A program made the translations under genes and the position numbers. Shown here one piece after another: positions 9,943-58,520 of a stretch of 64,000 nucleotides of DNA; within the stretch, counting starts at the first letter, position 1, and every line of letters starts with the position of its first letter. This stretch comes from Candidatus Latescibacterota bacterium (lineage in GTDB: Bacteria; Latescibacterota; UBA2968). The stretch covers positions 1,536,001-1,600,000 of the forward strand of contig OZ242010.1 of NCBI GenBank assembly GCA_965204745.1, given 5' to 3'. The notes below the pieces were generated by a model. It made no database searches. It saw only the letters and a list, made by a program, of their open reading frames with translations, and was not told the DNA's origin.

Positions 9943-10195
9943 TGGTCTTTTGGGATGGCATTGTTGCAATGGCTTCTGTGAACGACTGCGGAACGTCAAG
10001 GAGATCATTTGCTGTCAGCATATCACATCAGGCCAACAGAAAATCAATTTAGTACAAATCCATTTTGAATGGAGACACAAGAATATGGCGAGGGTATTTT
10101 TTGCCCTTGAAAACCTCAAAATGAGTGCTTATATTCTTCGCGAAAGCAGAGGATTTTGGCTCGTAACACTATTATTTTTTTAAGGCTTAATTTCG

Positions 10196-11080
10196 ATGAA
10201 TGCGTTCGATAAAGATGGGCAAGTGATTATTTGGGGCGATGCGATCAACGCGCTAAAAAAAGAAGTTCCCGATGCGTCTGTCGATTTGATTTTTGCTGAT
10301 CCGCCCTACAATATTGGCAAAAAATTTAATGGGAGAAAAGACGAATGGCAGTCCGATGTGGACTACCTTGAATGGTGCTATAGATGGCTGGATATATGCC
10401 TATCGAAACTAAATGAAACGGGTAGCTTTTATCTGATGGCAGCAACTCAAAATATGCCGTATCTGGATATTTATCTCCGAAATAAAATACATATCCTCTC
10501 TCGCATTATGTGGTACTACGACAGTTCGGGTGTGCAGGCAAAAAAATATTTCGGTTCACTGTATGAGCCGATTATTTTTGCTGTGAAAGACAAACGGCAT
10601 TACACTTTCAATGCGGCTCAAATTCTGGTGGAGGCAAAAACGGGTGCGAAGCGAAAACTAATAGATTACAGAAAATCAGTGCCCGCGCTGTACAACACCA
10701 GAAAAGTTCCCGGCAATGTATGGGAATTTTCCAGAGTTCGCTATCGAATGGATGAATACGAAAATCATCCAACGCAGAAACCAATCGCATTACTTGAACG
10801 CATTGTAAAAGCGAGTTCAAATGCAGGTGACACTGTCCTCGACCCATTTTCAGGCACATTTACAACTTCTTATGTTGCCAAAAAACTGGGGAGAAAATCT
10901 ATCGGCATTGAAATTGATGAAGAGTATGTCAAAATTGGATTGCGACGGCTACAAATCGCCACCCACTATAAGGGCGAAAAATTAGAGCGCACGCCCCGAA
11001 CTTACGAGATGAGAAACGCCAAAAAACAACTGACATTTTTAGAGAACCCCCATGGAACACGCCTTTACACCACGGATTAA
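10196..11080 (+). CDS. Beta-class adenine DNA methyltransferase, YhdJ-like
   Basis: DPPY before HPTQKP and DPFSGTFTT; DSSGVQAKK and RVRYRMDEYENH segments resemble YhdJ. Confidence 0.9.
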   Translation: MNAFDKDGQVIIWGDAINALKKEVPDASVDLIFADPPYNIGKKFNGRKDEWQSDVDYLEWCYRWLDICLSKLNETGSFYLMAATQNMPYLDIYLRNKIHILSRIMWYYDSSGVQAKKYFGSLYEPIIFAVKDKRHYTFNAAQILVEAKTGAKRKLIDYRKSVPALYNTRKVPGNVWEFSRVRYRMDEYENHPTQKPIALLERIVKASSNAGDTVLDPFSGTFTTSYVAKKLGRKSIGIEIDEEYVKIGLRRLQIATHYKGEKLERTPRTYEMRNAKKQLTFLENPHGTRLYTTD

Positions 11081-12152
11081 AGCCATCTGAAAAGAGAAAT
11101 TTGGTGCTTTATCCGAAGCCATCTACGCGAAGAGTCCGTTGCTTCAGTATTTGAATCTCAAAACGGTCTCGGCTACTCGGGGGTCTAAAGCGAGAGGAAA
11201 TTTTGGCAATATCTATGCTGTATATGTTCTCGTTGAGGACTATGTTAAAGGGAATTTTCACGATCAGGGTGACTACGCCAATTATACCGGCGCACAATTT
11301 TCAGTGCTATTGAAGCGACAGCGTTCGCTTCCATTTGGCAGTAAGCTACAAAATCACGCGCTCAACCACAGGATGAATCAAGAATACAGAAAGCTCTTTC
11401 CCCAGTCCGATTTTACACCCATAATGCGCGATGTTGATACAAATCGGTATTGGATAAACGAGAATCTTTTAGAGATCGAAATAAGCGATAAAAAATTCAA
11501 TATTGCAGAGGCTGTCCTTGAAATTGTGAAGCAGTACATCAGAGCCAAACAAAGTGCTTTCGACGATTTCATCGAAACCTGCGAAAATTTGAAGCGCGTC
11601 AATAAAGAGAATGAATGGGAAACAAGAGACTTTATCTCGAGCTTGCTTGAACCAAATGTCGATGCAAGAATTTTTGAGATTGTGAGTTTTTCCATATTGA
11701 AATATTTCTACCGCGAGCAGATCGTTTTTTGGGGATTTGATATGGATACTATTGGAGGGGAAAATCTGAAACTTTACAAAACCGGACGCACCAATGCCAA
11801 TGATGGCGGTATTGACTTTGTAATGCGTCCTTTGGGACGATTTTTTTAGGTCACCGAAACTTTAGATGTGAGAAAGTACTTCCTTGATATTGACAAAATT
11901 GAACATTATCCAATTTCTTTTGTCATAAAATCCGAAGAGTCTGTTGAGAGCTTGACCCAAAAATTAGAAAACGGTGCAAGACGCCAATTTCCCGTCGAAA
12001 CAATCGTAAAAAGATATATGGACTGCATTGAAGAAGTAATCAATATCCCTGCTCTGAAAGAACGATTTGATGAAGCGGCACAAGAAAATCACACCAATAA
12101 TATTTTGGACGAAATTGTGAAGCAGAGCAAAGTTGAATTTAATTACGAATAA
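11052..12152 (+). pseudogene. Type II restriction endonuclease interrupted by two in-frame stops (TGA 11088-11090, TAG 11847-11849)
   Basis: One reading frame from ATG 11052 to TAA 12152 joins track ORFs 11139 and 11868; NDGGIDFV...FF*VTE PD-(D/E)xK-like site; overlaps the MTase 3' end; AT-rich. Confidence 0.8.
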
Positions 12153-12469
12153 ACCAAGCATGAGATTGCGTACTTTCTGAGATATTTGAAAATTTGGATT
12201 GAGCCATAACTGTAAGATGTTATGGCTTTTTTCAATCGTTAGGAGAAAGGAGTATGTGATGACGCAACAAAAGACAAAGCCGCGTTTCGGGAAAAGGGGT
12301 ACGCGATCAAACACAACGCGGTCAGGGCCAAACAAATAGAAGCCGTGTGCAACGTGATTTGGGATCGCCTCGACGCAGATCGCAATGACCCCAAAACATG
12401 AATCTAAGGCGGCAAAGAAGGGTCTCAAGGGATGGATGGACACGCGGCTTTTGACGCGCTGATCTACGA

Positions 12470-13810
12470 ATGGAGGACACCATGAACCAACCACTCAAAA
12501 TTTTCATGACCTATGCCCATGCAGATGCAGCGGCGAAGGACAAATTGAAAAGATGCCTCGCTGGGATGGCGAGACGAGGCGAGATCGCGTTTTGGCGCGA
12601 AAACGAAATGCTTCCGACCAACACTTGGCGGGAAGCCATTGCCAATCATCTCGCGGACGCGGACATCTTGCTCTATCTCGTCTCCCTCAACAGCCTTGGC
12701 GCCGCGCACTGCAACGGGGAATTGTCCGAAGCCCTGAACGCGGACAGCGGCCTGAGCATCCTCCCCATCCTCCTCGAGGCGTGCGATTGGCAACGGTATC
12801 AACTCAACCTCATGCAAGTTCTTCCTGACAGAGGCAGGCCGATTGACAAATGGCGGCCCGAGAGCAAAGGGTGGCAAAACGTAGAGGCCGGAATCCGAAA
12901 AGTCGTAAAAAAACGGGTTGCAGATCGAAAAAAATCCACCTCCGCCCCAAGAGTGTCAGATGATCAGATGGCGAGTTTTGGGCTGCAACTGGGCAACTTC
13001 AAGCTCCTCTTGGAACAAGAGGAAGCCGCCATAGAAGCCTATTCGCATGCCATCGCGCTCAAGCCCAACTTCGCCGAAGCCTACAACAACCGCGGCACGA
13101 TTCTCAACGAAATGGGCAAAGTTGACCTTGCCATACGAGATTTCAACAAGGCCATCGCATTGAGGCCCAATCTCGCCGAAGCCCATTACAATCGCGGCAC
13201 GGCGCATGGCTTCAAAAGCGACCACGACCGCGCGATGCAAGACTACGGTGAGGCCATCAAACTGAAGCCCAATATCATCGAAGCCTATTACAATCTCGGC
13301 GTGGCGCATGCCTTCAAAAACGACCTCAACCGTGCGATACAATACTACAACAAGGCCATCAAACTGAAGTCGGATTTTGTCATCGCCTATAACAATCGCG
13401 GCATTGCGTATCTCGGCAAACGCAAATACGACCTTGCGATCCGAGACTTCAACAAAGCCATAGCCCTCAACCCAATGGATGCCAGTCCATACGTCAATCG
13501 CGGCAGCGCGTACTACGACAAAGGCGACTACGACCGGGCCATCCAAGACCTCGACAAAGCGATGGTCCTCGAACAGAATCCCGCCGATGTCTATCGCAAC
13601 CGCGGCATCGCATATTACGCGCGCGGCATCGCACGGCTAAAGCAGAGCGAATGGGACAAGGCCAAAGAGGACCTGACCGTCGCCAAGGACATGCGCTTCA
13701 ACATTGCCGCAACATTTCGCCGCGAGCAAGGAGGCATCGCGGGCTTCGAGCGAAAATACGACCTTGTCTTGCCAAACGACATCGCAGCCATGTTGTGGTC
13801 TGGGTTTTAA
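12470..13810 (+). CDS. TIR domain plus TPR repeat protein
   Basis: IFMTYAHAD...ADILLYLVS...CNGELSEAL TIR domain, then about seven AYNNRG-type TPRs; start may be 12482. Confidence 0.88.
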   Translation: MEDTMNQPLKIFMTYAHADAAAKDKLKRCLAGMARRGEIAFWRENEMLPTNTWREAIANHLADADILLYLVSLNSLGAAHCNGELSEALNADSGLSILPILLEACDWQRYQLNLMQVLPDRGRPIDKWRPESKGWQNVEAGIRKVVKKRVADRKKSTSAPRVSDDQMASFGLQLGNFKLLLEQEEAAIEAYSHAIALKPNFAEAYNNRGTILNEMGKVDLAIRDFNKAIALRPNLAEAHYNRGTAHGFKSDHDRAMQDYGEAIKLKPNIIEAYYNLGVAHAFKNDLNRAIQYYNKAIKLKSDFVIAYNNRGIAYLGKRKYDLAIRDFNKAIALNPMDASPYVNRGSAYYDKGDYDRAIQDLDKAMVLEQNPADVYRNRGIAYYARGIARLKQSEWDKAKEDLTVAKDMRFNIAATFRREQGGIAGFERKYDLVLPNDIAAMLWSGF

Positions 13811-14000
13811 TCCGCGCAATCCCCAAATCCGCGTAATCCGCGATTCTGACAAGGGGCGGTGGATGTAGCAAATACAGACGCCACAAATAGAGCAGAGGAA
13901 GGGTGCGAGTAACTGTCTGAATCGCGGATTAAACGGATTAAGCAGATGAACGCGGGATTGGGTTGGCAGGTGGGGCGAAGAAAGTGAAAATGTAGAGGGC
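13808..14000. repeat. AATCCGCG/CGCGGATT repeat units (two, opposite orientation)
   Basis: TAATCCGCGCAATCCCCAAATCCGCGTAATCCGCGATTCTGACA and TGTCTGAATCGCGGATTAAACGGATT. Confidence 0.85.
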
Positions 14001-14093
14001 GCGAGTCGTGCAGAGAAAGTGGATGAAAGCAATTTTAGGGGCGTGGTCCCCGTGCCCGCCCAAGGATAATGACACGACAGGGAGTTCTGTAGC

Positions 14094-14378
14094 ATGGATA
14101 TTGGATTTATATGGGACGAAGACAAATATCGAGAAGTCCAAGGAAAGCATAATGTCAAGTTTTACGAGGTGGTTTCCGCATTTGATGATCAGGGCGGATA
14201 CGAAATCTCGGATCCAGCAGGCCATGAGGATCGGTGGATGTTGGTAGGCGCAACCGCCAATGGCCGGGTATTGGCTGTGATCTATTCCGAAGCAGATTTA
14301 CCACTCTATCGTCTTATCACCGCATTTGATGCAGGAGGGAGATTTCTCAATGAGTACTACAACAGAAGTGGAATTTGA
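14094..14378 (+). CDS. BrnT-family ribonuclease toxin
   Basis: FIWDEDK...KHNVKFYEV...EDRWMLVG...LAVIY...RLITAF. Confidence 0.82.
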   Translation: MDIGFIWDEDKYREVQGKHNVKFYEVVSAFDDQGGYEISDPAGHEDRWMLVGATANGRVLAVIYSEADLPLYRLITAFDAGGRFLNEYYNRSGI

Positions 14379-16611
14379 TTACCAAACCTATATGAAGGAA
14401 AATACCCCCGAAATTTATCGTGGGCCAGAGGCACGCCAAAAACGGCGGGAGGCCGCAGAAGCAAGGAAATTGCCTTTGCGGAGGAAAAACAGGGGCGAAA
14501 TTACCATAGCTACTGTTGCCGAGTTTCACGAACAATTGGGAAATCTCGGAACAGAGGACGAGACGAACTTCTTATATCGAGGCCAAGCCGATGTCAAGTG
14601 GTCGGTTGACTGTTCGGCGGCCCGACGCTTGACCAACTACTCTGCTAATCCGATTGATGACCAACTGATAAACTCTCTCCTCGTAGGCTATCTGGAGTTT
14701 CTTATCGCTAAGGCCAGAATGCGCGGTTTTATTTCACCCGGCCTTAGCGAAAATTCCGCTGACTTGGAGTTTTTGGCCCAATTACAACATCAAGGGGCCG
14801 CAACCGGGCTTATCGACTTTACCCGCCAGCCATTGGTTGCTCTATGGTTTGCCTGCAACGCGACCCGTAAAGCGGATGGTGCTGTCTATGTCCTTTCTCG
14901 TTCTGCAACACGGGCGGTAAGCAAACGCGACCTTGAGGATAAGACGATACAAGATTTCTATGAACAAAATAAATTGTGGTTGTGGCAACCTTCGGCAATC
15001 GGCAATCGCATTGTGGCACAAGGCTCCATTTTTGTCTTTGGTGTTCCGCGTATTTATCCAACTAAAATGAAACAACTGATCGTTCAGGCGGACAAAAAAG
15101 ATAACATTCTTAAAGAATTGGAGACCCTGTATGGCATCAACGAGGAAGAATTATTTGCCGATTTCTCGGGGTATGCTATCGCCAACGCATCTAGCAGAAT
15201 CTTTGATGTCAACCGCACTATTGACTACTGGCATGAACAAATTGAATTGGCATCGGATTCGAACGATAAAAAAAAAAAAGTGATGGCTCATTTTAATTGT
15301 GGGGTAGCTTATAGCGCGATTAAAGCCTTCAAGAAAGCTATTGAACAATACGGCAAAGCGATAGAACTCAACCCGAATTTTGCCATAGCCTATTACAACC
15401 GTGGCATTGCTTACGTCAACAAAGACAACTTTAAACAGGCGATACAAGACTTCGATAAGGCCATAGACCTGAAGCCATATTTTGCTGAAGCCTATAACAA
15501 CCGTGGCGTTGCTTACGGCAACAAAGGTGACTTTGACCAAGCGACACAAGACTACAGCAAGGCCATAGACCTGAAGCCAGATTATGCCGATGCCTATTAC
15601 AACCGTGGCGTTGCTTACGGCAACAAAGGTGACTTTGACCAAGCGACACAAGACTACAGCAAGGCCATAGACCTGAAGCCAGATTATGCCGATGCCTATT
15701 ACAACCGTGGCATTACTTACGGCAAAAAAGGCAACTTAAACCAGGCGATACAAGACTTCGATAAGGCCATAGACCTGAAGCCAGATTATGCCAAAGCCTA
15801 TCACAACCGGGGCGTTGCTTACGGCAACAAAGGTGACTTTGACCAAGCGACACAAGACTACAGCAAGGCCATAGACCTGAAGCCAGATTATGCCAAAGCC
15901 TATCACAACCGGGGCGTTGCTTACAGCGACAAAGGCGATTTTGACCAAGCGATACAAGACTACAATAAGGCTATAGACCTGAAGCCAGATTTTGCTGAAG
16001 TCTATAACAGCCGCGGCATTGCTTACAGCGACAAAGACGATTTTGACCAAGCGATACAAGATTACAACAAAGCCGTAGAACTCAATCCGAATAATGCTGA
16101 AGCCTATTACAATCGCGGCAATGCTTACAGCAACAAAGGTGACTTTGACCAAGCGATACAAGACTACAATAAGGCTATAGACCTGAAGCCAGATTTTGCC
16201 GATGCCTATCACAACCGCGGCATTGCTTACAGCGACAAAGACGATTTTGACCAAGCGATACAAGACTACAATGAGGCCATAAAACTGAACCCAAATTATG
16301 CTGAAGCCTATAACAATCGCGGCGTTGCTTACAGGATCAAAGGCAACTTTGAACAGGCGATACAAGACTTTAATGAAGCCATAAAACTGAAGCTGGATTC
16401 TGCCAAAGCCTATTTCAATCGGGGCTACACTTGGTTACATTTGGGCGAATGGGAAAAGGCCAAAACAGACTTGACCACCGTCAAGAACATGGGTGTGGAC
16501 ATCGTCGCCATGTTTCGTCTCCAATACGGAAGCGTTGCGGACTTTGAGCGGGAATACGGCCTTGAGTTGCCGGAAGACATCGCGGCCATGTTGACGCGGG
16601 AAAGTGTCTGA
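14350..16611 (+). CDS. FRG domain plus TPR repeat protein with a short N-terminal extension
   Basis: LYRGQAD, LQHQGAATGLIDFT...LVALWFAC, NRIVAQGSIF FRG motifs; about 12 TPRs encoded by 102-bp repeats. Confidence 0.9.
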   Translation: MSTTTEVEFDYQTYMKENTPEIYRGPEARQKRREAAEARKLPLRRKNRGEITIATVAEFHEQLGNLGTEDETNFLYRGQADVKWSVDCSAARRLTNYSANPIDDQLINSLLVGYLEFLIAKARMRGFISPGLSENSADLEFLAQLQHQGAATGLIDFTRQPLVALWFACNATRKADGAVYVLSRSATRAVSKRDLEDKTIQDFYEQNKLWLWQPSAIGNRIVAQGSIFVFGVPRIYPTKMKQLIVQADKKDNILKELETLYGINEEELFADFSGYAIANASSRIFDVNRTIDYWHEQIELASDSNDKKKKVMAHFNCGVAYSAIKAFKKAIEQYGKAIELNPNFAIAYYNRGIAYVNKDNFKQAIQDFDKAIDLKPYFAEAYNNRGVAYGNKGDFDQATQDYSKAIDLKPDYADAYYNRGVAYGNKGDFDQATQDYSKAIDLKPDYADAYYNRGITYGKKGNLNQAIQDFDKAIDLKPDYAKAYHNRGVAYGNKGDFDQATQDYSKAIDLKPDYAKAYHNRGVAYSDKGDFDQAIQDYNKAIDLKPDFAEVYNSRGIAYSDKDDFDQAIQDYNKAVELNPNNAEAYYNRGNAYSNKGDFDQAIQDYNKAIDLKPDFADAYHNRGIAYSDKDDFDQAIQDYNEAIKLNPNYAEAYNNRGVAYRIKGNFEQAIQDFNEAIKLKLDSAKAYFNRGYTWLHLGEWEKAKTDLTTVKNMGVDIVAMFRLQYGSVADFEREYGLELPEDIAAMLTRESV

Positions 16612-16827
16612 ATCGCGGATTAAACGGATTACGCGGATGAACGCGGATTGGGTTGGCAGGTAGGGCAGAGGGCGCAGATGACACAGACGCCGCAAGTGGG
16701 GCAGAGGACGCGGATTAAGCGGCGCAGGTGGGGCGAAGAATGCAGAAGGCATGAAAGACACAACGGCGGTAGGGCGGTGGGGGTAATCCGTGCAATCCCT
16801 TAATCCGCGTAATCCGCGATCCAGACA
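16605..16827. repeat. 223-bp element with terminal inverted repeats TGTCTGAATCGCGGATT...AATCCGCGATCCAGACA
   Basis: Ends are near-perfect reverse complements; the same units recur at 13808, 13914, 17589, 17853, 41101, 50541 and 58463. Confidence 0.85.
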
Positions 16828-16840
16828 ACTGGAGGTACCA

Positions 16841-17206
16841 ATGCCAGTGCAGGAAAAATTTCAGACAACTCAAGATCTGCTGGACGCCGCGGACCAGGAG
16901 TTCGCTGTTGGCAACGCGCTGCCGGCAACAGAGCGGCTGTGGGATGCTGTCAGGCATACCCTGACCACCATTGCCGAAGAAAAGGGCTGGCCCTGCGCCG
17001 ATGAAGATGACTTGTACCAAGTCGCAGAGCGGCTGAACGAACTCGACAAAGTGGGACTGGATTTTCTGTTGAGCGGATACTCAGCGGCGCAAGGCTATCC
17101 AGACAAAGTCCGCTATGGATTTTTTGATTTCGCCGATGGCGACGCCGACGATGTCCGCAAAGTGGTACACTGCGTTATCAACTTGGCACGAGAACTGGCC
17201 GACTGA
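16841..17206 (+). CDS. PaREP1/HEPN-like helical protein
   Basis: LLDAADQEFAVGNALPATERLWDAV; GGAGGT RBS. Confidence 0.7.
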   Translation: MPVQEKFQTTQDLLDAADQEFAVGNALPATERLWDAVRHTLTTIAEEKGWPCADEDDLYQVAERLNELDKVGLDFLLSGYSAAQGYPDKVRYGFFDFADGDADDVRKVVHCVINLARELAD

Positions 17207-17207
17207 G

Positions 17208-17573
17208 ATGACGACCACGCTACCATCATCAGATCATATCCAAATCGCACGGGAATTTCTAGACGAATCCGACCGAGAATTTGCCGTTGGAAAGGTACTG
17301 AAAGGATCGGAAATGTTGTGGGGAGCCGCCGCCCACGCGCTGATAGCGGTAGCTCTACAAAATGGCTGGCCTCACAACAGCCACGGGGCCATGAAAAATG
17401 TAGCACGGCGATTGCCCGATATTCCCAAGGAGCCTCATTGGCTCTCCGAATTTGCTACGGCGGAACGATTCCACATCAATTTTTATCATGGCAATATGAC
17501 CAGCCAAGCGATAACGCGCAACCGCCCGAAGGTGCGCCGTTTTATCGTCCGCCTACTGGACCTAACCGACTAA
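17208..17573 (+). CDS. PaREP1/HEPN-like protein, paralog of the previous gene
   Basis: FLDESDREFAVGKVLKGSEMLWGAAAHA...SHG...AERFHINFYH. Confidence 0.78.
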   Translation: MTTTLPSSDHIQIAREFLDESDREFAVGKVLKGSEMLWGAAAHALIAVALQNGWPHNSHGAMKNVARRLPDIPKEPHWLSEFATAERFHINFYHGNMTSQAITRNRPKVRRFIVRLLDLTD

Positions 17574-17588
17574 TCAATCATGCTTTTT

Positions 17589-17897
17589 AATCCGCGAAAT
17601 CCCCAAATCCGCGAAAATCCGCGATCCAGACACAGCGGTTGTGGATGGGCGAGGCACGCACACGGCAGGGCGGTGATGGGCCGGGAACGCACGGGTGGTT
17701 GGGCGGCGAGGTGAGGCCGCACGGGCGGATGGGTGGAGAGGACGGGCACGCACGGGAGGGGGTAAGGACACAGCGGAGGCAGGGCGGTGGGGGGATCTCA
17801 CCTCTTACTTTTCGCCTCTTACTTGGGGATAGGGCTTGCGGCAGGGCGGTGGGTAATCCGTGAAATCCCCAAATCCGCGTAATCCGCGATCCAGACA
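17589..17897. repeat. Two direct AATCCGCG...CCAGACA units around a G-rich spacer and CTCTTAC heptamers
   Basis: Units at 17589-17632 and 17853-17897. Confidence 0.8.
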
Positions 17898-17910
17898 ATA
17901 GGAGGTTTTC

Positions 17911-19353
17911 ATGAATGTCATTTTAATCGTGCTGGACACATGGCGGCGCGATCATGTGGGGTGTTATGGCAATGAGTGGATTCACACGCCGAACATCGAC
18001 CGGTTCGCCGAGCGAGCCGCCGTGTTTGACAATGCGTACTTGGCGTCGTATCCCACGTTGCCGTGTCGGCGCGACATTGCGACCGGGCGATACGAATTTC
18101 CGTGGCGGGGCTGGGGCGGGCTGGAGCCTGACGACGTGACCCTGGGCGGCACCGTACACGAGGCGGGCAAAGTGTCCTACTTTTTCACGGACGTGTACCA
18201 CCACTGGACGAGCAACCCGGGCAGTGGCTATTGGCGGCCCTTTTCCGGCTTTGATATCGTGCGCGGGCAGGAGCGCGACCGGTATATCACGGATGCGGAC
18301 GTCGCCTTTGAGAATCGCACCTTGGACTATCCCCCGCACAACAAACCGGATCAACCGCACTTCCGCAACGCGCAGTACATCCGCAGAGAAGAGCGCGACT
18401 GGTTCTCGGCGCAGTTGTTCTCGCGGGCCGCGCGGTGGGTTCAGCACAATGCGGACCGGGAGTTCTTTTTGATGATCGATTCATTTGACCCGCACGAGCC
18501 ATGGGACCCGCCTCGCCATTACGTCACCTTGTACGACGATTCCGACGAGGCGGTCAACGAGTATCCGGTCGCGCCTTACGACTGGGTCAAAGGCAATCTA
18601 ACCGAAGCGGAATTGAAGCGCGTGCAGGCGATTTACGCGGGCGAAATCACGATGGTGGATCGGTGGGTCGGCCACTTTCTCGATCAGGTTGCGACCATGG
18701 GCTTGATGGACGAGACGATGATCATCCTCGCATCCGATCACGGAACGCACAATGGGGACCACGGGCGCACCGGGAAAAACTGGGTGTTGTGGAATGAGAT
18801 CACGCGCATTCCCCTCATCGTTTGGCATCCCGCCTGGGGGCACGGCACGCGCCCCGGGCAATTTGCACAGCCCATAGATTATTTCCCGACGGTGTTGGAC
18901 GCGATGGGCATCGCAGTGCCCAAAGGCGTGCAGTTGCACGGTCAAAGCCTGTTGCCCTATCTCCGGGACGGGCACGCGCCGGGGCGGGACGCGATTTTGT
19001 ACGGGCAATTTGCCGGGACGTGCAACCTCACAGATGGCGAGTACGCGTTGTTGCAAGGTGTGGCTGAATCCAACCCGCCCGCGTACGCGTATTCGAGCAT
19101 CATCGCCAACCGCAATCAATTCGATTGGGATGCGGACGCGCTCAGGTGTAAATTGACGCCTGCGCGCCACCCGGAAAAACACAAAACGCGCTTGTACCAC
19201 CTGCCCTCGGATCCCAAGCAGGAAAACGATCTCGCGGCCAAAGACCCCGATACCTTGGCCCGCATGCAAAAGTTGATGGTCGAAAAATTGCGCGCGATTC
19301 ACGCGCCATCGGAATTGGCGATCCGCTTGGGCCTCGCCAAGGAGCGCACATGA
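17911..19353 (+). CDS. Sulfatase-family hydrolase with Thr at the formylglycine position
   Basis: NVILIVLDTWR, TPNID, TLPCR, FDPHEPWDPP, SDHG. Confidence 0.88.
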   Translation: MNVILIVLDTWRRDHVGCYGNEWIHTPNIDRFAERAAVFDNAYLASYPTLPCRRDIATGRYEFPWRGWGGLEPDDVTLGGTVHEAGKVSYFFTDVYHHWTSNPGSGYWRPFSGFDIVRGQERDRYITDADVAFENRTLDYPPHNKPDQPHFRNAQYIRREERDWFSAQLFSRAARWVQHNADREFFLMIDSFDPHEPWDPPRHYVTLYDDSDEAVNEYPVAPYDWVKGNLTEAELKRVQAIYAGEITMVDRWVGHFLDQVATMGLMDETMIILASDHGTHNGDHGRTGKNWVLWNEITRIPLIVWHPAWGHGTRPGQFAQPIDYFPTVLDAMGIAVPKGVQLHGQSLLPYLRDGHAPGRDAILYGQFAGTCNLTDGEYALLQGVAESNPPAYAYSSIIANRNQFDWDADALRCKLTPARHPEKHKTRLYHLPSDPKQENDLAAKDPDTLARMQKLMVEKLRAIHAPSELAIRLGLAKERT

Positions 19354-20687
19354 AGCCGAATATCCTGATGATGATCGCAGACGATGCGACCTACAACGAC
19401 CTGTCCCTGTACGGCGGGCAAAATGTCGAGACGCCCAACATCGACCGCCTCGCACGCCAAGGGTTGGTCTTCAACCGGGCGTACCTGCCCATGGCCATGT
19501 GCAACCCGTGCCGAACCGCGCTCTACACGGGCTTGCACCCGGCCCGCAATGGCTCGTGCTGGAACCACTCTGCCGCGCGCCCGGGCACCAAAAGCCTGCC
19601 GCACTACCTCGGCGACCTCGGCTATCGGGTGGGCCTGTGCGGCAAAAAGCACGTCGGGCCGCACAATTGTTTTCCATTTGAAAACGTGCCGGGCATCGAG
19701 GGCGGGTGCGTGCATCCCAATCCCGAGTTCGGCGTTGCGGGGATTCGCGCATTTATCGGGCAAAATTCAGACGCGCCCTTCTGTCTCGTGGTCGGGCTTT
19801 TCGAACCGCACGCGCCGTGGACCTTGGGCGATCCCGATCATTTCGATCTCGACGCGCTCAAACTGCCGCCCTACATGGCCGACACGCCCGAAACGCGCAG
19901 TGATTACGCCAAATACCTCGCAGAAATAGAAGTGTTAGACAGGGAAATCGGCGACATTCTCGGCGTGTTGGACCAAAGCGGCCGGGCAGATGATACGATA
20001 GTGATTTTCACATCCGAGCAGGGGTCGCAGTTTCCCGGCTGCAAGTGGACGAACTGGAACACGGGCGTCCACACCGGGTTCGTCGTCCGCTGGCCCGGCA
20101 AGGTCGCGCCGGGCTATACGGATGCGATCATCCAGTACGAAGACGTCACCCCCACGCTGATCGATGCTGCGGCCGGGAATCCGCAGGCGATAGACTTCGA
20201 TGGCTCGAGCTTTTTGCCCGTGCTCTTGGGCGATTCAGACGCGCATCGGGAACACGCCTATTTTATACACAACAACATCCCCGAAGGCCCGCCCTATCCG
20301 ATTCGCGCAGTGACGGATGGCACTTACCACTACATCCGCAATCTCACGCCCGAGGCGATCTACATCGAGAAGCATCTGATGGGGCCGAACAAATGGCACC
20401 AATACTGGCCCACTTGGGTCGCGGATACGACGTTCAATGAACACACGCGCTTTGTCGTGACGCGCTACATGCACCGCCCGGCCGAGCAACTGTACCGCAT
20501 GGACGACGACCCGTGCGAGATGACCAACCTCGTCGACGACCCGACCCACGCGGCGGCAAAAGAACGCCTATCCGCCGAACTCGACCGATGGATGGCCCAA
20601 CAGGGCGACCCCGGCGCCGAGATCGACACCCAAGCCCAATGGCAAGCCGCCAAACAGGGCAGGCATTTTGAACGGCAGTGCGGATAG
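19350..20687 (+). CDS. Sulfatase (sulfamidase/N-sulfoglucosamine sulfohydrolase-like)
   Basis: PNILMMIADD, CNPCR, GKKHVGP, EPHAPW. Confidence 0.9.
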   Translation: MKPNILMMIADDATYNDLSLYGGQNVETPNIDRLARQGLVFNRAYLPMAMCNPCRTALYTGLHPARNGSCWNHSAARPGTKSLPHYLGDLGYRVGLCGKKHVGPHNCFPFENVPGIEGGCVHPNPEFGVAGIRAFIGQNSDAPFCLVVGLFEPHAPWTLGDPDHFDLDALKLPPYMADTPETRSDYAKYLAEIEVLDREIGDILGVLDQSGRADDTIVIFTSEQGSQFPGCKWTNWNTGVHTGFVVRWPGKVAPGYTDAIIQYEDVTPTLIDAAAGNPQAIDFDGSSFLPVLLGDSDAHREHAYFIHNNIPEGPPYPIRAVTDGTYHYIRNLTPEAIYIEKHLMGPNKWHQYWPTWVADTTFNEHTRFVVTRYMHRPAEQLYRMDDDPCEMTNLVDDPTHAAAKERLSAELDRWMAQQGDPGAEIDTQAQWQAAKQGRHFERQCG

Positions 20688-20727: not shown

Positions 20728-22014
20728 ATGAAAATGAACGCGGAAACGACTCGCCCTCAAGAGCAGGGCAACACCGAAGATTTGCCGGCTCTCGATGGGG
20801 AATGGGAAATGAAGCGGTTGGGAGATATCGCGTCATTTTTCAAGGGGTCAGGGCTGTCCAAGGCCGATCTGTCCCCCGATGGAAAAAGACGCTGTATCCT
20901 CTATGGAGAACTTTTTACAACTTATGGAGAACGTATCACAGAAGTTCTACACGGGACTAACCGGGAGGGTGCATTCTTTTACTCTCTTCAAAACGATGTG
21001 CTCATGCCTACCTCGGATGTAACTCCAAATGGTTTAGCGACGGCAAGCTATATCCCATTCTCAGGTATTATCCTTGGTAGCGACATTCTCGTCATTCGCG
21101 CTCCAGAACACCTTATCAACGGAGAGTTTCTCGCTTACACAATCAAGGTACACCGCAACCAAGTGATGCGACTCGTATCCGGCACGACGGTCTTTCATTT
21201 GTATGGGCGTGACATGGCGAACTTTAGATTTTACGCACCCAGTGTAAAAGAGCAACGCGCCATCGCCGAGGTGTTGTCGGATGTGGATGGCCTAATCCAG
21301 TCATTGGACGCGCTGATCGCCAAGAAGCGCGCCATCAAGCAGGCCACCATGCAACAACTTCTCACCGGCAAGACGCGCCTGCCGGGGTTCAGCGGGGCGT
21401 GGGAGACGAAGCGGTTGGGAGAGATTGGAGAAATTTCCGGTGCTGGAGTTGACAAAAAGATCAGACCGAACGAAGTTATGGTCCGACTCGTGAACTACCT
21501 CGACGTCTATCGCAAGACGTTTCTATACTCGAAAGATCTCGTGCAAGAAGTTTCTGCGAAACAGGACCAAGTACGGCGCTGTTCGGTAAATAAAGGCGAC
21601 ATCTTTTTCACTCCAACCTCTGAGGTACGCGATGATATCGGTCGATCCGCAGTCGCCATGGAAAACATTTCAGACGGGGTATATAGCTATCACGTCGTCC
21701 GCTTGCGGTTGAATACAAATTGGGACCTTCGATTTCGAGCTTACGCCTTCGATACAAAAGATTTCTACGATCAAGCGAGCCTGTCATGCGAAGGAAGCGG
21801 AACGCGCTATGTCATCACCCTTCCAAGATTCCGAGCGATCACTATTCGTTTCCCTCCAACGACGGAAGAACAATCTGCTATCGCCGCCATCCTCTTTGAC
21901 ATGGACGCCGAGATCGCCGCGCTGGAGCGACGCCGGGATAAGACCTGTGCCATCAAGCAGGGGATGATGCAACAACTCCTCACGGGACGGATTCGGCTGG
22001 TTAAATCGGAGTAA
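20728..22014 (+). CDS. hsdS: Type I restriction-modification specificity subunit (orphan); start uncertain within 20668-20734
   Basis: Two TRDs, each followed by an EQ(R/S)AIA...IKQxxMQQLLTG conserved helix. Confidence 0.92.
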   Translation: MKMNAETTRPQEQGNTEDLPALDGEWEMKRLGDIASFFKGSGLSKADLSPDGKRRCILYGELFTTYGERITEVLHGTNREGAFFYSLQNDVLMPTSDVTPNGLATASYIPFSGIILGSDILVIRAPEHLINGEFLAYTIKVHRNQVMRLVSGTTVFHLYGRDMANFRFYAPSVKEQRAIAEVLSDVDGLIQSLDALIAKKRAIKQATMQQLLTGKTRLPGFSGAWETKRLGEIGEISGAGVDKKIRPNEVMVRLVNYLDVYRKTFLYSKDLVQEVSAKQDQVRRCSVNKGDIFFTPTSEVRDDIGRSAVAMENISDGVYSYHVVRLRLNTNWDLRFRAYAFDTKDFYDQASLSCEGSGTRYVITLPRFRAITIRFPPTTEEQSAIAAILFDMDAEIAALERRRDKTCAIKQGMMQQLLTGRIRLVKSE

Positions 22015-22034: not shown

Positions 22035-22394
22035 GGACCTATCCCCCCGTTACGTTACTCGCTCCGCTTCGTTGTAGGCTACGCCTGTGCCTGTGAGGAA
22101 GGGGGAACGAGGATCGGTTTTGCGAGGGTATTGATGAGGGATTTTTAATCGCGCCCTATCGGGACCTACCCCCCTAACCCCCGTTACTCGCTCCGCTTCG
22201 TTGTAGGCTACGCCTGTGCCTGTGAGGAAGGGGGGAATGGCGAGAGGGTTTGTGAGGGATTTGCACGAGAGGTTTTTGGGGTTCATGGCGTGCTCCAGTC
22301 GCTCAAAGCCATCAGAACAGCCAGGGATACAAACCTTCAAAAAGCCATGCGCTCCCCCTTTCCTTGTAGGAAAGGGGGCCGGGGGGATAGGTCC
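22035..22394 (+). repeat. MITE-like GGACCTA...TAGGTCC element (core 22162-22394) plus a partial upstream copy
   Basis: Near-identical reverse-complement copy at 34978-35262; related copies at 45175, 50654 and 58211. Confidence 0.85.
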
Positions 22395-22461
22395 TAGGAG
22401 GAAGGGGGAATAACATCTCTGCGTTGCGGGGAAGAACTGGAGGAGGGGGCATCATTTGTTT

Positions 22462-23240
22462 TTAGGTTCTGTTGACATTTTGTTTTAGAGCGATGAGCGT
22501 GGCCGCAAAAGCGAGAAAGCCTCGATAACTCGTGCTGAGTTTCTCAAAGCGAGCGAATATCCTGCGATACTGCTTCATTTTTCCAATCAACCGCTCAATC
22601 AAATTGCGTTGCTTATACCGATGGCGATCATAATCACGCGGGGTCTTGCGATAAGACCGGGGCGGAATCACGGCAACCTGTCCATGGTGAGAAAGGACGT
22701 CCAGAAACGCTTGTGAATCATAGCCCTTATCCGCGATGACAGATCGGCTCTCATACCCAGCGATTAACGCTTCGGCTTGCGTGATATCGTGGGTTTGTCC
22801 CGGTGTGAGTCGAAACCGGAGCGGGAGGCCACGCGCATCTGTGCAGAGATGGATTTTGGTGCTGAACCCGCCTCGGCTCTTGCCGAGGGCTTGCGCGGCT
22901 TGCCCCCCTTTTTTTTTGAGGCACCCGCTGCACAGGCATGAGCACGCACGACAGTGCTGTCAATGATCAGACATGCCAAGTCTGGATCAGACGTAAAATG
23001 CTGGTGCATGCGTTCCCACACGCCATACCGGCACCAGCGAGCAAAGCGTTTATAGACTGTGTTCCACTTCCCGTACTGTGCGGGCAACTGACGCCACTGA
23101 CCACCCGAGCGCATCACCCACAGAACCGCTTCAATGAAGCGTTTGCAACCGGCTTCCTCGCCGACATAGACGCGAGGGCATTCGCGGATGAATGCGAGAA
23201 TTTTAGGCCACTGATTCGGAGAAAGAATAAGGTTTGACAT
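22462..23240 (-). CDS. IS5 transposase, two ORFs joined by a -1 frameshift at A9G6 (22903-22917)
   Basis: OrfA IDSTVVRAH; OrfB translated manually as GKSRGGFSTKIH...ADKGYDS...RNLIER with no stops. Confidence 0.9.
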
Positions 23241-23282
23241 ACACACAGAGTAACTCAAAATATCCCAAATGTCAACAGAACC
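22465..23282 (-). mobile_element. IS5-family insertion sequence (IS427-like group), 818 bp
   Basis: Perfect 16-bp IRs GGTTCTGTTGACATTT / AAATGTCAACAGAACC, flanked by TA on both sides. Confidence 0.93.
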
Positions 23283-23572
23283 TAGACACGTTCTAAGGGG
23301 CGATCCGATACTGGATGACTCGTTGAGGTCTTTGGGCGATTGGTCGAGGCTTGCTTCTTACTCGTTTTCTACTCTTAATTCGCATTGTCAGTTGTCAGTT
23401 GTCAGTTGTCAGTCCCCGCGCCCAACCCCTTCGGTGAGACGTAAGACGGGAGCGGTGAGGCAAACCCTTCGTAGGGACAGGGCCCCGTGCCTGTCCGAAG
23501 AAATACAAAAAGCGAATGAGCCGTTGTGCCCATCCGCCGAATCGCCGGTTCGTAAATTTTTTGGAGAATATC

Positions 23573-25131
23573 ATGATCCGCTATTTATTTTTGGCAATTT
23601 TGATGGTGATAACCGCTTGTAGCCAACAGGCCGAGCGCAAGCGCACGCTCGTTTTTGGGCGCGGGGGGGATTCCGTGGGGTTGGATCCCGCGCTGGAGAC
23701 GGATGGCGAGTCGTTTAAGGTGTGCGATAATATTTACGAGACCCTCGTCACCTTTGTGCCCGAGCGCACGGACTTGGCGCCGGGGTTGGCGACTTCATGG
23801 GAGGCGTCCACAGATGGGTTGACGTGGACGTTTCACCTGCGAGAGGGCGTGGTTTTTCACGATGGCCTGCCCTTCAACGCGGATGCGGTGGTGTTTTCAT
23901 TGGCGCGGCAGTTCAAGGCCGATCACCCGTTTCACAAGGTGGAAGGCGCGTATCAATACTGGTCGAGCATGTCGATGAGCGAGATCGTGAAAGATGTGCG
24001 TGCGATAGACGATGCGACTGTGGCGATTGATTTGAAGCGGCCCAACGCGCCGTTTCTGTCCAATTTGGCGATGAATTTCTGCGCCATTGTCAGTCCGTCT
24101 GCGGTCGAAAAATGGGGAGCTGATTTTGCGCGGCATCCCGTTGGCACGGGCCCGTTTCGGTTTGTCGATTGGATCAAGGACGACCGCGTTGTGCTGGAGC
24201 GCAATCCCGATTACTGGGGGCCGGCGCCCAAAATTGACCACCTCATTTTCAGGAGCATTCCGGAAAATTCCGTGCGCTTGATCGCGCTGACGCAAGGGGC
24301 GATTGACGGCATGGATAACTTGGTGCCCGATTTTTGCCGACCATTGAATCGCACGACCACCTCGCGTTGCTGTCGCAACCCGGAATGAATGTGGGCTATT
24401 TGGCGATGAACATGGACAAAGAGCCGTTTCAAAAACTCGCTGTGCGCCGCGCCATCAACCACGCGATAGACAAGCAGGCGTTGATCGACAATTTGTATCA
24501 GGGCTTGGCGATCCCCGCGGTCAATCCCATTCCGCCCACGCTTTGGAGTTATCGCACGGAGACGCCGGGTTATGAATACGATCCGGAGAAGGCCAAAACC
24601 CTCTTGGCCGAGGCGGGCTTTTCAGATGGGTTCGAGACCACGCTTTGGGCCATGCCCGTTCCCCGGCCGTATATGCCGCAGCCCTTGAAAATTGCCGAGG
24701 CCATTCAAGCCGATTTGCAAGCGGTGGGGATCAAAGCGGAGATCGTCACGTTTGAGTGGGGGACGTATCTGGACAATGTTCAGCGCGGGCAGCACGATAT
24801 GGCCCTGTTGGGATGGACGGGCGACAATGGGGATCCGGACAATTTCCTCTATGTTTTGCTGGACAAGAGCGCGACGCAAAAGCCGGCCAACAACATCGCG
24901 TTTTACCGCAGCGACCCCCTGCACGAGGTTTTGGTGGCCGCGCAAAAGGAGTCGGACAAAGCCAAACGCACGGCCCTGTATCAAAAGGCACAGGAGATTG
25001 TATTTCATGACGCGCCCTGGGTGCCGCTGGTACACGCGACCCAAACCGCGGCCTTTCACACTCGGGTCACCGGGTTCAAGCTACACCCGACCGGAAACAA
25101 GTGGTTTTACGATGTGGCAGTGGGGGAGTGA
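23573..25131 (+). CDS. ABC peptide-binding lipoprotein (DppA-like), frameshifted near 24331-24335
   Basis: Lipobox ITAC, LDP, PVGTGPF; a T5 run where T6 would restore ...PDFLPTIES... Confidence 0.85.
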
Positions 25132-37581: not shown

Positions 37582-37804
37582 GGTGAAACTCCTTTCAGGT
37601 CAGTTTCCGCTCCGCCCAACCCCCTTCGGTGAGAGGTGAGACGGGAGAGGTGAGTTTATTAGCCACAAAAGGCACAAAAACACAAAAGGGGTACAACTGG
37701 CGATAGCCAGTTCAAAGGTGAGCGATGCGTGTAGGGGCGATGCCCTGTGCTCGCCCGAAGATAAGTAGTCAGCGGTCAGTTCCCGCCCATCTCGGAGAGG
37801 GGGC

Positions 37805-41014: not shown

Positions 41015-41248
41015 AGCACACCCATCCATAGAAGTTTCAAAGCGCGCCCAAAGTAATGCGAAACCCCGTTTGACGCAAGTTTTTCGGGCGAGAAAACACC
41101 TGTCTGAATCGCAGATTCAACGGATTACGCAGATTACGCGGATTGGGCAACGCAGGTTGGGCAGAGGGCGCAGAAAGGCAACAGGCAAAGAGAAAGCCCG
41201 AGTTCCTTGCGAACCCGGGCTTGGTTTGTTGCGTGCATTGTTTTGCCG

Positions 41249-50528: not shown

Positions 50529-50859
50529 GCCACCCCGCCGTGTCTAAATCGCGGATTAAACGGATTAGGGGATTGCGCGGATTACCCCACACATCCCTAC
50601 CGCCGCTTCATCGTTCCCACTCCGCTATGTCCTTCGCATGCCTTGTCGCCATAGACCTATCCCCCCGGGCCCCGTTATTCGCTTCGCTCCTTGTAGGCTA
50701 CGCCTGTGCCTACAAGGAAAGGGGGAGCGCATGGCTTTTTGAAGGTTTGTATCCCTGGCTATTCTGATGGCTTTGAGCGAATGGATCACGCCATGAACCC
50801 CAAAAAACCTATCGCCATTTCCCCCTTCCTCGTAGGAAGGGGGCCAGGGGGTAGGTCCC
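50529..50859 (-). repeat. Composite repeat (CGCGGATT unit plus GGACCTA element), inverted relative to 58211-58520
   Basis: Direct sequence comparison. Confidence 0.82.
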
Positions 50860-57764: not shown

Positions 57765-58210
57765 TTTGTCCCCCTCTCCGAGGGGGGGGGGGGGGGGTAC
57801 ACTGTACTGATCATCCTAACAGACTGTTTTGCAATGAAATAGAAGCATGCCTCAAGACGAGAATGGGCACCATGAACGCCCGTTTTCGCAGGAGAACGGT
57901 GGCCTCCAAACAGGTTTGAACAACGTCGAAAAATGGCGGGAATCATCTGAAGTCTCCTTTGCAAAAGCTGTCGCACAGACCGGGCGCGGCCTTTCCTCCG
58001 CGCTCAAAATCGCAATGGTGAACGAAAAAAACTAAAAAATCGCGCTATTATTTGTCAAGCGAAAAAATGACGATGGGATCGGTGGTCAGTCAAGCGAGAA
58101 GGACAGGCGCAGGGGCCTGTGCCTGCGACGGATGGCGGCAGGATGTGCGATTAGCCACAAAAGGCACAAAAACACAAAAGGGCGATGGGTCTTCCGAGGG
58201 ATTGTGCGAG

Positions 58211-58520
58211 GGGGACCTACCCCCTGGCCCCCTTCCTGCGAGGAAGGGGGAACTGTGAGCGGTTTTGCGAGGGGAATGGCGTAGAGGTTTTTTGGGGTTC
58301 ATAGCGTGATCTATTCGCGCAAAGCCATCAAAACAGCCAGGGATACAAACCTTCAAGAAAGCCATGCGCTCCCCCTTTCCTTGTAGGCACAGGCGTAGCC
58401 TACAATGAGCGAAGCGAATAACGGGGGCCGGGGGGATAGGGCTTGCGGTAGGGCGGTGTGGGGTAATCCGCGCAATCCGCGTAATCCGTTTAATCCGCGA
58501 TTCAGACACGGTGGGGTGGG
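58211..58520 (+). repeat. Composite repeat (GGACCTA element plus AATCCGCG unit)
   Basis: Reverse complement of 50529-50859. Confidence 0.82.

Follow-up and report, generated by a model that had tools for sequence, protein, structure and literature searches.

A REP/MITE-like repeat family marks exact gene boundaries in cassette-like defence arrays of an uncultured Latescibacterota bacterium

The repeats most akin to those considered here have been described in four settings. Repetitive extragenic palindromes (REPs), which are known near stop codons in E. coli, bacterial interspersed mosaic elements (BIMEs) and REPIN-RAYT systems comprise about a hundred or more extragenic copies that occur singly, as inverted hairpin doublets or in mosaic clusters; REPs and BIMEs are usually transcribed at the 3' ends of genes, and in REPIN-RAYT systems family-specific repeats flank a single-copy nuclease gene. 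In integron and VCR arrays the genes point the same way, mostly lack promoters and are each delimited by an imperfect inverted repeat; their open reading frames (ORFs) begin a few bases past a repeat and often end within one, and such arrays are rich in defence and toxin-antitoxin (TA) genes and variable between relatives. Correia (CREE), ERIC and RUP elements, which are miniature inverted-repeat transposable elements (MITEs), are small, non-coding and hairpin-forming, carry terminal inverted repeats, exist in full and half forms, and lie beside or between genes with which they are co-transcribed. Lastly, the pdif (XerC/XerD-site) modules of Acinetobacter plasmids are TA or resistance gene modules bounded by short inverted recombination sites in varied contexts. 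Features of each setting recur in the chromosome of an uncultured, sponge-associated Candidatus Latescibacterota bacterium (assembly GCA_965204745.1, contig OZ242010.1), where, in a stretch of 64,000 nt analysed here and called the window (positions 1,536,001 to 1,600,000), defence and TA genes are parted by copies of a dispersed non-coding repeat. The case bears on how defence islands come together without a prophage, integron or known transposon: the seams between defence genes are marked by a non-coding repeat, and it is at these seams that related species differ. The boundary pattern is real and statistically strong, and the repeat is a REP/MITE-like family, not an integron site. The best reading of the arrays is that they are integron-like in outcome, not in membership, and the hairpin repeats probably act as portable recombination points for the exchange of defence genes.

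The family is comparable to REPs and BIMEs in number (here 123–156 copies), and possibly resembles REPIN-RAYT systems in having repeats of its kind around a nuclease gene, in this case a small gene of the GxxExxY family (PF13366, TIGR04256). Unlike those systems, it is accompanied by no Y1/RAYT gene: the transposase profile PF01797 gave 0 matches in the genome, whereas a control search found matches in 6 of 14 named genomes. Its module is, moreover, non-palindromic, with 9-nt units and a fixed GATTCAGACA end; its ends are exact at the stop codon and at the ribosome site, and the same terminal 18-mer is shared across phyla. In contrast to integrons, no IntI, core sites, attI or common promoter were found, the element is longer (~220 bp), and several arrays per genome coexist with roughly 130 dispersed solo copies. 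The inverted arms (39–45 nt) recall MITEs, although no target-site duplication was seen and no parent insertion sequence with these ends was found. Unlike pdif modules, the elements lie in the chromosome, and they greatly exceed those modules in length and number and have ends that do not resemble dif sites. The motif strings had no match in the literature text searched, and searches by concept and for intervening-sequence proteins yielded nothing on the repeat.

The original prediction, which described defence and TA modules parted by repeats at exact gene boundaries, was rechecked in every detail and coordinate, and it holds. The stop codon of the TIR-TPR gene (TAA, 13808–13810) is the first triplet of the 44-nt module TAATCCGCGCAATCCCCAAATCCGCGTAATCCGCGATTCTGACA (13808–13851), which reads TAATCCGCG CAATCCCC AAATCCGCG TAATCCGCG ATTCTGACA, and that of the FRG-TPR gene (TGA, 16609–16611) lies within TGTCTGA (16605–16611). 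Two unrelated genes begin 13 nt past a repeat end: CAGACA ends at 16827 and 17897, the spacers are ACTGGAGGTACCA and ATAGGAGGTTTTC, and the ATG codons stand at 16841 and 17911. The unit at 16605–16827 has inverted termini, with 39-nt arms that are 79% complementary. The gene names given earlier (TIR-TPR, BrnT, FRG-TPR, PaREP1 and sulfatase) are backed by Pfam and PADLOC (Table 1), and a type II restriction-modification (R-M) system, TIR-TPR, BrnT, FRG-TPR and PaREP1 genes together occupy the interval between a cupin and a sulfatase gene, which makes the locus a defence island. With at most one mismatch allowed, the window contains the 12-mer AATCCGCGATYC 10 times, where 1.81 occurrences are expected, and this number was reached in 0 of 100 shuffles.

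The units of the form TGTCTGAATCGCGGATT...AATCCGCGATTCAGACA are copies of a dispersed non-coding repeat family. It was followed in the genome that holds the window (G000; a single contig of 5.48 Mb, 56.5% G+C, 97.65% complete) and in its congeners, among them G001, G010, G016, G017 and G018; loci fetched for comparison carry L codes. At each end of the repeat, three or four 9-nt units (TAATCCGCG-like) and a closing GATTCAGACA make up a module, and two inverted modules flanking a G-rich core form a hairpin element of ~220 bp. The 17-nt end AATCCGCGATYCWGACA (pattern AATCCGCGAT[TC]C[AT]GACA) is present in G000 in 123 exact copies, in 146 with at most one mismatch and in 156 with at most two, although five to seven of the two-mismatch matches are chance occurrences inside genes; 148 of the 156 are intergenic according to our own gene calls. 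In 79 copies (class T) the motif is the terminus of the repeat, and in the other 77 (class A) it continues into G-rich mosaic repeats (CGG..GGGCACGCACGGG) in ordinary spacers. Full elements with both inverted ends (190–550 bp; seven of ~190–225 bp and three longer) are restricted to four places in G000, namely 1.343–1.354 Mb, 1.389–1.400 Mb, 5.428–5.433 Mb and the window. Full-length relatives of the 223-bp element of the window (16605–16827) were found at six further G000 places with 79–86% identity, and the copies in G018 are 72–83% identical.

The distances of all genomic copies to gene ends are non-random, and terminal copies mark exact boundaries genome-wide. Of 41 class T copies that face a start codon, 14 lie 11–16 nt before it, where uniform intergenic placement predicts 2.2% (binomial P ~1e-13, or ~1e-9 when 36 class A copies are added); solo modules, too, are found 11–16 nt from starts. 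In 11 of the 38 that face a stop, positions 5–7 of TGTCTGA are the TGA of the gene, with 0 called genes ending in the other two frames, and one further copy has TGG for TGA, its ORF running on. The genes that use the element's TGA belong to unrelated families, among them a type I S subunit, a sulfatase, a methyltransferase, two type IIG enzymes, a helicase, two TPR proteins, an M81 peptidase and a ROK kinase. Class A copies in G000 showed no peaks in distance to starts or stops. The spacing between CAGACA and ATG coincides with the mode of co-directional gene spacing in G000 (10–19 nt), where the median gap is 66 nt.

Orthologues without the repeat reveal what happens at the gene ends. The ROK kinase terminates in ...EVFG* in 8 of 8 relatives that lack the repeat; in G018 the native TAA stop is directly followed by AAACTCGTCTGGATCGCGG (AAACTCGTCTGG...), and in G000 TAA has become GAA, so that the ORF adds four codons up to the element's TGA. 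For the M81 peptidase and the methyltransferase of G000, the last 3–5 codons are element-coded; the methyltransferase ends in ...GFCAEKR* in G018 and in ...GFCAVKTV* in G000, with the break at GCGCGG. Judging from these three cases, one end of the repeat abuts or covers the native stop, and the other directly precedes the ribosome site. Where it sits, the ancestral spacer is gone, including the intrinsic terminator of the relatives.

All genes of the four G000 arrays are co-directional. The array interiors contain three Eco57I-like type IIG enzymes, a PLD-SNF2 helicase, TIR-TPR, FRG-TPR, the PaREP1 pair, BrnT with a large partner (twice), PIN_3 and PIN genes, two AF2212-like genes and a few small unknowns, and the outer flanks are ordinary genes: a methyltransferase with SBP and TPR neighbours, GlnD, sulfatases, a GH32 enzyme and a PhyH gene. 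Elsewhere in G000, inverted motifs 1080 bp apart surround a TA-like pair with an HTH antitoxin. Direct module repeats bracket the BrnT/FRG-TPR unit and several GxxExxY genes, and those of the right type bracket the PaREP1-like pair. The BrnT paralogue in the array at locus L001 is also placed after a half element, and the window segment 13911–14456 is 91% identical to G000 1347095–1347638. Thus, the delimiting of defence and TA modules by repeats, proposed for the window, extends to four G000 arrays and to many loci of a sister species.

Within the genus, the family is abundant only in the species of G000 and in two sister species: the exact 16-mer end is present 113 times in G000, 94 times in G018 and 32 times in G016, once each in 4 of 18 other congeners and not at all in 14. 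At the window site, 10 of 11 relatives' loci carry the motif-free order sulfatase, cupin, ~490 aa, 259-aa PhyH-like, 225 aa, sulfatase pair; these ten are more distant congeners. In G000, homology to the PhyH-like gene stops at 12469, 1 base 5' of the TIR-TPR ATG (the left breakpoint of the TIR-TPR-to-PaREP1 segment is at ~12460), and right-flank homology resumes at 17900, 3 nt past CAGACA. The ordinary genes of the relatives and the PhyH remnant therefore indicate that three ordinary genes of G000 were replaced by two blocks of defence genes, the right end being a repeat terminus. The same sulfatase site holds four repeat forms: eleven tandem 17-mers in G001, a 170-bp inverted element in G016, two tandem units in G018 and the array in G000. 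A TIR-TPR homologue in G016 (77% DNA identity) shows the same succession of motif, 13 nt and ATG.

Although segments shared by G000 and G018 are 84–92% identical, the same cassettes stand at different loci. The FRG-TPR homologue of G018 (84% DNA identity in the FRG part) follows the methyltransferase, where G000 has an Eco57I-like gene; that gene in turn finds its best match (86% identity over the full length) in the helicase array of G018. The PIN_3 and PIN cassettes are likewise relocated, and each time flank homology stops at the repeat. A G018 island consisting of a repeat, a GxxExxY gene, repeats, a pentapeptide/MTase/ResIII type III R-M system and further repeats lies between desaturase and cytochrome genes whose G000 orthologues are ~390 kb apart; homology stops 22 nt past the desaturase stop and restarts 14 nt past the last CAGACA. 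Left-side junctions look imprecise, with microhomology at GCGCGG. At every locus examined, the breakpoints of rearrangements between species fall on repeats. Gene content between repeats thus varies between species, with homology breakpoints at repeat ends, as the original prediction anticipated. At the ROK site, orthologous copies have diverged at about the rate of other non-coding DNA, yet many copies within a genome are identical, which suggests that each lineage has undergone recent spread or concerted evolution.

That prediction also cast the repeats as recombination, capture or expression junctions in the manner of an integron. Exact boundaries, the delimiting of modules and the species breakpoints support this in part; capture as a dedicated mechanism is not shown, because searches for a site-specific recombinase, a circular intermediate and an attC-like site found none of them, and recombination between dispersed repeats explains the same data. 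In the reading that we favour, the repeats would provide portable homology, and recombination between copies, whether general or aided by a nuclease, would allow segments of gene plus repeat to be gained, lost and moved, giving rise to cassette-like defence islands without an integron. Co-transcription of the element with its neighbours is probable, since the genes of an array all run one way, and the long stem of the transcript would then probably loop the insertion out and leave the stop and the next ribosome site as close as in a tight operon junction. This would account for the persistence of insertions with these exact boundaries and of no others. Should the repeats, alone or together with GxxExxY, drive exchange, modular defence islands in integron-free lineages would be explained, the widespread GxxExxY family would gain its first function, and the signature of 9-nt units and GATTCAGACA abutting a stop and a ribosome site could be used to find new defence genes in metagenomes.

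Several observations weigh against exchange at the repeats, or against the measurements on which it rests. Genes were called with a crude home-made caller that rewards ribosome-site motifs (4284 genes, 85% coding), and paralogues among the 14 start-proximal cases (three Eco57I-like, two AF2212-like and two PhyH) inflate that count somewhat. The 77 class A copies lie beside housekeeping genes and have no boundary precision, and boundary-abutting copies also flank hisD, a leuD-like gene, the ROK kinase, a peptidase and a nucleoside hydrolase; thus, the repeat is not specific to defence genes. Nor is it special to this array, given that about half of the ~150 copies are class A in ordinary mosaic repeats. 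Both strands of the 223-bp element are predicted to fold into a long terminal stem, with a weak sense-strand z-score of -2.1. In a stem alignment of 17 of 25 full copies (6 from G000 and 11 from G018; copies above ~270 nt, copies of unclear orientation and the G016 copy were left out), standard pairs fill 91.0% of cells over 40 counted pairs against 90.3% in shuffles, and pairs changed on both sides number 3 against a shuffled mean of 3.5, which is no covariation beyond chance. The stem is not proven in this way, as conservation of the structure follows from conservation of the sequence. Movement was not observed in the strain-level data, which consist of contigs of the same organism from four metagenome runs (X2, X4, X5 and X11) of four studies, fragmented at repeats: the genes are unchanged and the contigs break at repeats. 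One real variant was seen between strains: in runs X2 and X5, 274 other letters, whose sequence could not be read, replace 12322–12470, with the right edge at the TIR-TPR start. Finally, differential loss from an ancestor that had all the paralogues could mimic the movement of cassettes.

The rival that survives best, and that we hold possible though clearly less probable than exchange, is that the repeat is chiefly an expression element, a transcribed hairpin serving as an intercistronic RNA signal (an RNase III-type site, an mRNA stabiliser or terminator substitute, or a keeper of translational coupling) that would travel with genes for this reason. Every array runs in one direction and keeps the element in a single orientation, the stop codon falls in the stem base, the ribosome site follows 4–5 nt past the stem, the distance to ATG is the usual operon spacing, and the intrinsic terminators of relatives are gone where the repeat sits. 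Over 38 pairs inside the element, G-U cells outnumber A-C cells by 44 to 12, which weakly suggests that pairing in the sense strand is of importance. Against such a role stand the compensatory changes, which do not exceed chance, and the solo modules, which are unable to form the hairpin and share the 11–16-nt start spacing. Sigma-70-like promoters are not enriched (10 found, 10.2 expected), and terminator-like sites number 19 against 11.6 expected, none of them in modules. A scan of window positions 11000–20000 with Rfam (E <= 1) matched no family except for a sub-threshold msiK match outside the repeats.

We regard as unlikely the proposal that the repeats are passive, selfish MITE/REP-like sequences filling tolerated gaps. 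Islands that are weakly constrained and often horizontally acquired would collect such copies, the repeats would have no role in gene gain or loss, and their boundaries would reflect purifying selection against a damaged stop or ribosome site. The proposal agrees with the genome-wide spread of the family, half of it in ordinary mosaic repeats, with the copies abutting housekeeping genes, with the many other repeats and insertion sequences of the genome, and with the presence of other families at the same gene ends: the M81 site holds F1 in G000 and a CACAAAAGG-type repeat in G018 (families in Table 1), and the sulfatase site holds a different hairpin in G010 and G017. Tolerated random insertion, with a median gap of 66 nt, fails to predict either that 34% of copies lie at 11–16 nt or that 11 of 11 stops use one frame. 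Whole ancestral intergenic regions and genes were replaced, not interrupted, and the species breakpoints coincide with repeats at each locus examined. Even if passive, the strict placement between stop and ribosome site would be a clean case of compact operons constraining repeats.

A true site-specific cassette system appears no more probable, and perhaps a little less so. Here, the modules would be analogous to attC sites, circular units would insert at them, and the enzyme would be the GxxExxY PD-(D/E)XK nuclease or the host XerC/XerD; a dedicated, enzyme-driven cassette system with GxxExxY would be new. It would account for junctions that are exact at CAGACA/A and in a single stop-codon register, and for the direct module repeats that flank cassettes. 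GxxExxY genes are carried by 16 of 21 genomes of the genus, and 17 of 22 intact genes, spread over four repeat families (F1–F4), are module-flanked, having at least 5 family-specific k-mers within 300 nt; all 10 of the 10 read by eye are flanked by 9-nt-periodic modules. In G018, one such gene begins 16 nt past CAGACA within an array. Conversely, G000, with 113 exact F1 ends, has a sole GxxExxY gene (1178517–1178855), which is flanked by F3, and G016, with 32 F1 ends, has only a broken one; genomes without GxxExxY still carry a few F2 ends, and F2 counts do not track the gene. The gene may be just another cassette, often placed between hsdR and hsdM. PD-(D/E)XK enzymes are nucleases and are not known to act as strand-transfer recombinases. 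The left junctions, with their GCGCGG microhomology, look imprecise, and no circular junction was seen in the contigs of the four metagenome runs. Five apparent joints (16716 to 13993, 16716 to 17851, 16774 to 17854, 13947 to 17683 and 10004 to 17710) were rejected as circles or deletions because their short sides of 27–42 nt fit other repeat copies in the genome.

The only two PF00589 tyrosine recombinases of G000 lie at 0.677 and 2.803 Mb, far from the arrays, and are classified by NCBIfam as XerD (360 bits, above the cut-off) and XerC-like; the best scores for an integron integrase (TIGR02249) were 146 and 103 bits against a cut-off of 265. Reading by eye of the ends, (G)CGCGGGWAAC/TGTCTGA and TCAGACA/A(N)GG, showed no RYYYAAC or GTTRRRY core sites, and Rfam gave nothing; this comparison with attC (57–141 nt, against 190–550 nt for the element) was made on end sequences and length. 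No transposase was found between inverted motif pairs up to 6 kb apart in G000. Its multi-copy families, namely IS110 (54 copies at >=80% identity), IS5/IS4-type DDE transposases and TnpB, are not linked to the motif. IS110, considered as a driver because one copy borders the 1.388 Mb array in both G000 and G018, was dismissed since no more than 4 of its 54 copies have a motif within 1.8 kb. The flanks of 10 full copies share no direct repeat that would mark a target-site duplication, and at the M81 and sulfatase sites none is readable because the whole spacer was replaced; one metagenome element (L111) has similar flanks of ~30 nt.

Beyond the genus, stretches containing the exact 18-mer TGTCTGAATCGCGGATTA number 100 among metagenomes and at least 119 among species-representative genomes. 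Among the matches listed, record titles are mostly Candidatus Poribacteria, with Bacteroidota, Saprospiraceae, Pseudanabaena and Patescibacteria also represented. The 18-mer is mostly followed by further 9-nt units, and a few matches (e.g., Phycisphaerales) look like chance. Of the non-Poribacteria genome records with 9-nt units among the matches listed, 5 of 5 form hairpins of ~120–230 bp with the same inverted termini. The rule of stop and start boundaries is not established in other phyla, for the open-frame count made without gene calls (frames a, b and c at 13, 20 and 11 in G000) is uninformative, G-rich repeats being open by chance. A scan of metagenome neighbours covered 75 of 132 ORFs within 4 kb on the inner side of the motif, at 48 loci. 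About 15 of these loci have R-M or defence-type genes (HsdR/M, type III, AAA_15/21-DUF3696, SNF2, Uma2, PIN_3 and TIR-TPR), and 5 of the 48, all located via the 18-mer alone, have a small PF13366 gene; at one locus, a 740-bp unit with inverted termini encloses it. Both the five loci and the enclosing unit would fit a cassette system driven by GxxExxY.

A tree of 27 GxxExxY proteins speaks in the same direction, as three F1-flanked proteins of the genus group with all 5 metagenome proteins (from contigs of 34–45% G+C) with support of 87/80, nested in a 95/95 clade shared with F2. Flank labels require 8 changes on this tree where shuffles require 16.5, and none of 200 shuffles needs so few; because related genomes share flank labels by descent, only the grouping across phyla counts as independent evidence. 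The table row in PMC3424549 and the single sentence in a bioRxiv preprint that mention PF13366/GxxExxY give no function. One might propose, as a more novel but unlikely reading, that GxxExxY proteins are the partner nucleases of a hairpin-repeat superfamily spanning phyla (the ATCCGCG, ATCCTG, CACGAAG and CGCAGATGA families). Gene and cognate repeats would move between phyla, and the repeats would multiply, lodge between stop and ribosome site, and act as structure-specific recombination sites that assemble defence and TA cassettes. If true, the partnership would join the integron (IntI/attC) and REPIN/RAYT as a third solution.

Table 1. Features of the 64,000-nt window and repeat families of the genus (positions are those of the window).
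Feature	Position	Strand	Evidence or remark
Type II DNA methyltransferase	10196..11080	+	PF01555 E 6e-58; PADLOC MTase_II E 2e-133; start of inserted defence island
Type II restriction endonuclease, split	11139..11849 and 11868..12152	+	PADLOC PDLC03455 REase_II
Remnant, 5' part of ancestral 259-aa PhyH-like gene	12273..12469	+	68–74% identity to intact gene in 10 of 11 relatives' loci
TIR-TPR gene (ThsB-like)	12470..13810	+	PF13676 (TIR_2) and TPR families; PADLOC ThsB E 2e-20
Right-type module	13808..13851	+	9-nt TAATCCGCG units closing with ATTCTGACA
Left-type (inverted) half element TGTCTGAATCGCGGATT...	13914..13982	+	90% identity to 16596–16646
BrnT-family toxin gene	14094..14378	+	PF04365 E 8e-14
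FRG-TPR gene (PADLOC PDC-S15)	14350..16611	+	PF08867 and TPR families; PDC-S15 E 6e-31
Full 223-bp element, inverted termini	16605..16827	+	39-nt arms 79% complementary; long terminal stem predicted
Two paralogous PaREP1-like genes	16841..17206 and 17208..17573	+	PF05942 E 4e-8, second ORF
Right-type module	17588..17632	+	direct repeat with other window modules
G-rich mosaic repeats (GGGCACGCACGGG units and CTCTTAC tract)	17633..17853	+	kind found after class A copies genome-wide
Right-type module, right end of island	17854..17897	+	relatives' homology begins at 17900
Sulfatase, conserved flank gene	17911..19353	+	PF00884 E 2e-35; 77–91% identity in all 20 relatives
Terminal-motif copy, 1 mismatch	41101..41117	-	motif search of window
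Terminal-motif copy, class A, 1 mismatch	50541..50557	-	motif search of window
Terminal-motif copy, class A, exact	58492..58508	+	motif search of window
Repeat family F1			ATCCGCG...GATTCAGACA
Repeat family F2			ATCCTG...GATTCAGACA
Repeat family F3			CACGAAG / CACAAAAGG; typically with GxxExxY gene lodged between hsdR and hsdM
Repeat family F4			CGCAGATGA

Some genes of the window deserve comment. The methyltransferase at the left of the island is missing at the orthologous site in the relatives examined, and a copy with 87% identity is present elsewhere in G001. The two ORFs of the restriction endonuclease cover consecutive parts of the PDLC03455 profile (positions 33–268 and 277–368); beside an intact methyltransferase, this is probably an inactivated nuclease next to a surviving methylase. 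The BrnT and FRG-TPR genes overlap. Within the FRG-TPR ORF, a run of 12 A (15268–15279) falls between the part for the FRG domain and that for the TPR repeats and could be prone to slippage; in one metagenome run, contig cover was lacking in the bin that holds it. The first PaREP1-like ORF matched no family and is recognised as a paralogue of the second (37% identity, E 5e-13). Further to the right, parts of an HsdS (type I specificity) gene at 20728–22014 are 88–99% identical to short segments at 2.697–2.709 Mb, which suggests several hsdS genes with shared recombining segments.

At locus L001, the BrnT paralogue is followed by a gene for a 1311-aa protein (L001 10532–14467, G000 1347532–1351467) without a Pfam, PADLOC or NCBIfam match. 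The segment shared at 91% identity extends ~100 nt into this gene and into the FRG-TPR gene of the window, so that ~35 N-terminal residues of both proteins come from it. The IS110 copy that borders the PLD-SNF2/Eco57I array in G000 (1387697–1388704, L002 697–1704) and in G018 runs at its downstream end into CTCTTAC-type heptamers, which are also present in some repeat elements.

Other repeats share these surroundings. F3 is a second hairpin repeat family of G000 (GCCACAAAAGGCACAGAAACACAAAAAGGGG...), with ~19 copies that include window positions 37671–37690 and 58163–58182; at G000 1178049–1179009, the sole GxxExxY gene, situated between hsdR and hsdM, is flanked by six copies in tandem. In G001 (L026 ~2650–2850), 5' of the sulfatase, the eleven tandem 17-mers TAATCCGCGAAATCTCT replace the 3' end of the upstream 225-aa gene. 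The short hairpin of G010 and G017 (L020 and L033), GTAGGGGCGACCC...GGTCGCCC, fills the same gap between stop and ribosome site before the sulfatase orthologue, and sequences akin to it occur beside motif copies in G000. A gene for a 524-aa AAA_22 ATPase is present in 10 G000 copies (22220–23794, 2329139–2334126 and others), three of them in tandem, and another copy stands directly upstream of the motif and the TIR-TPR gene in G016 (L027 7044–8615).

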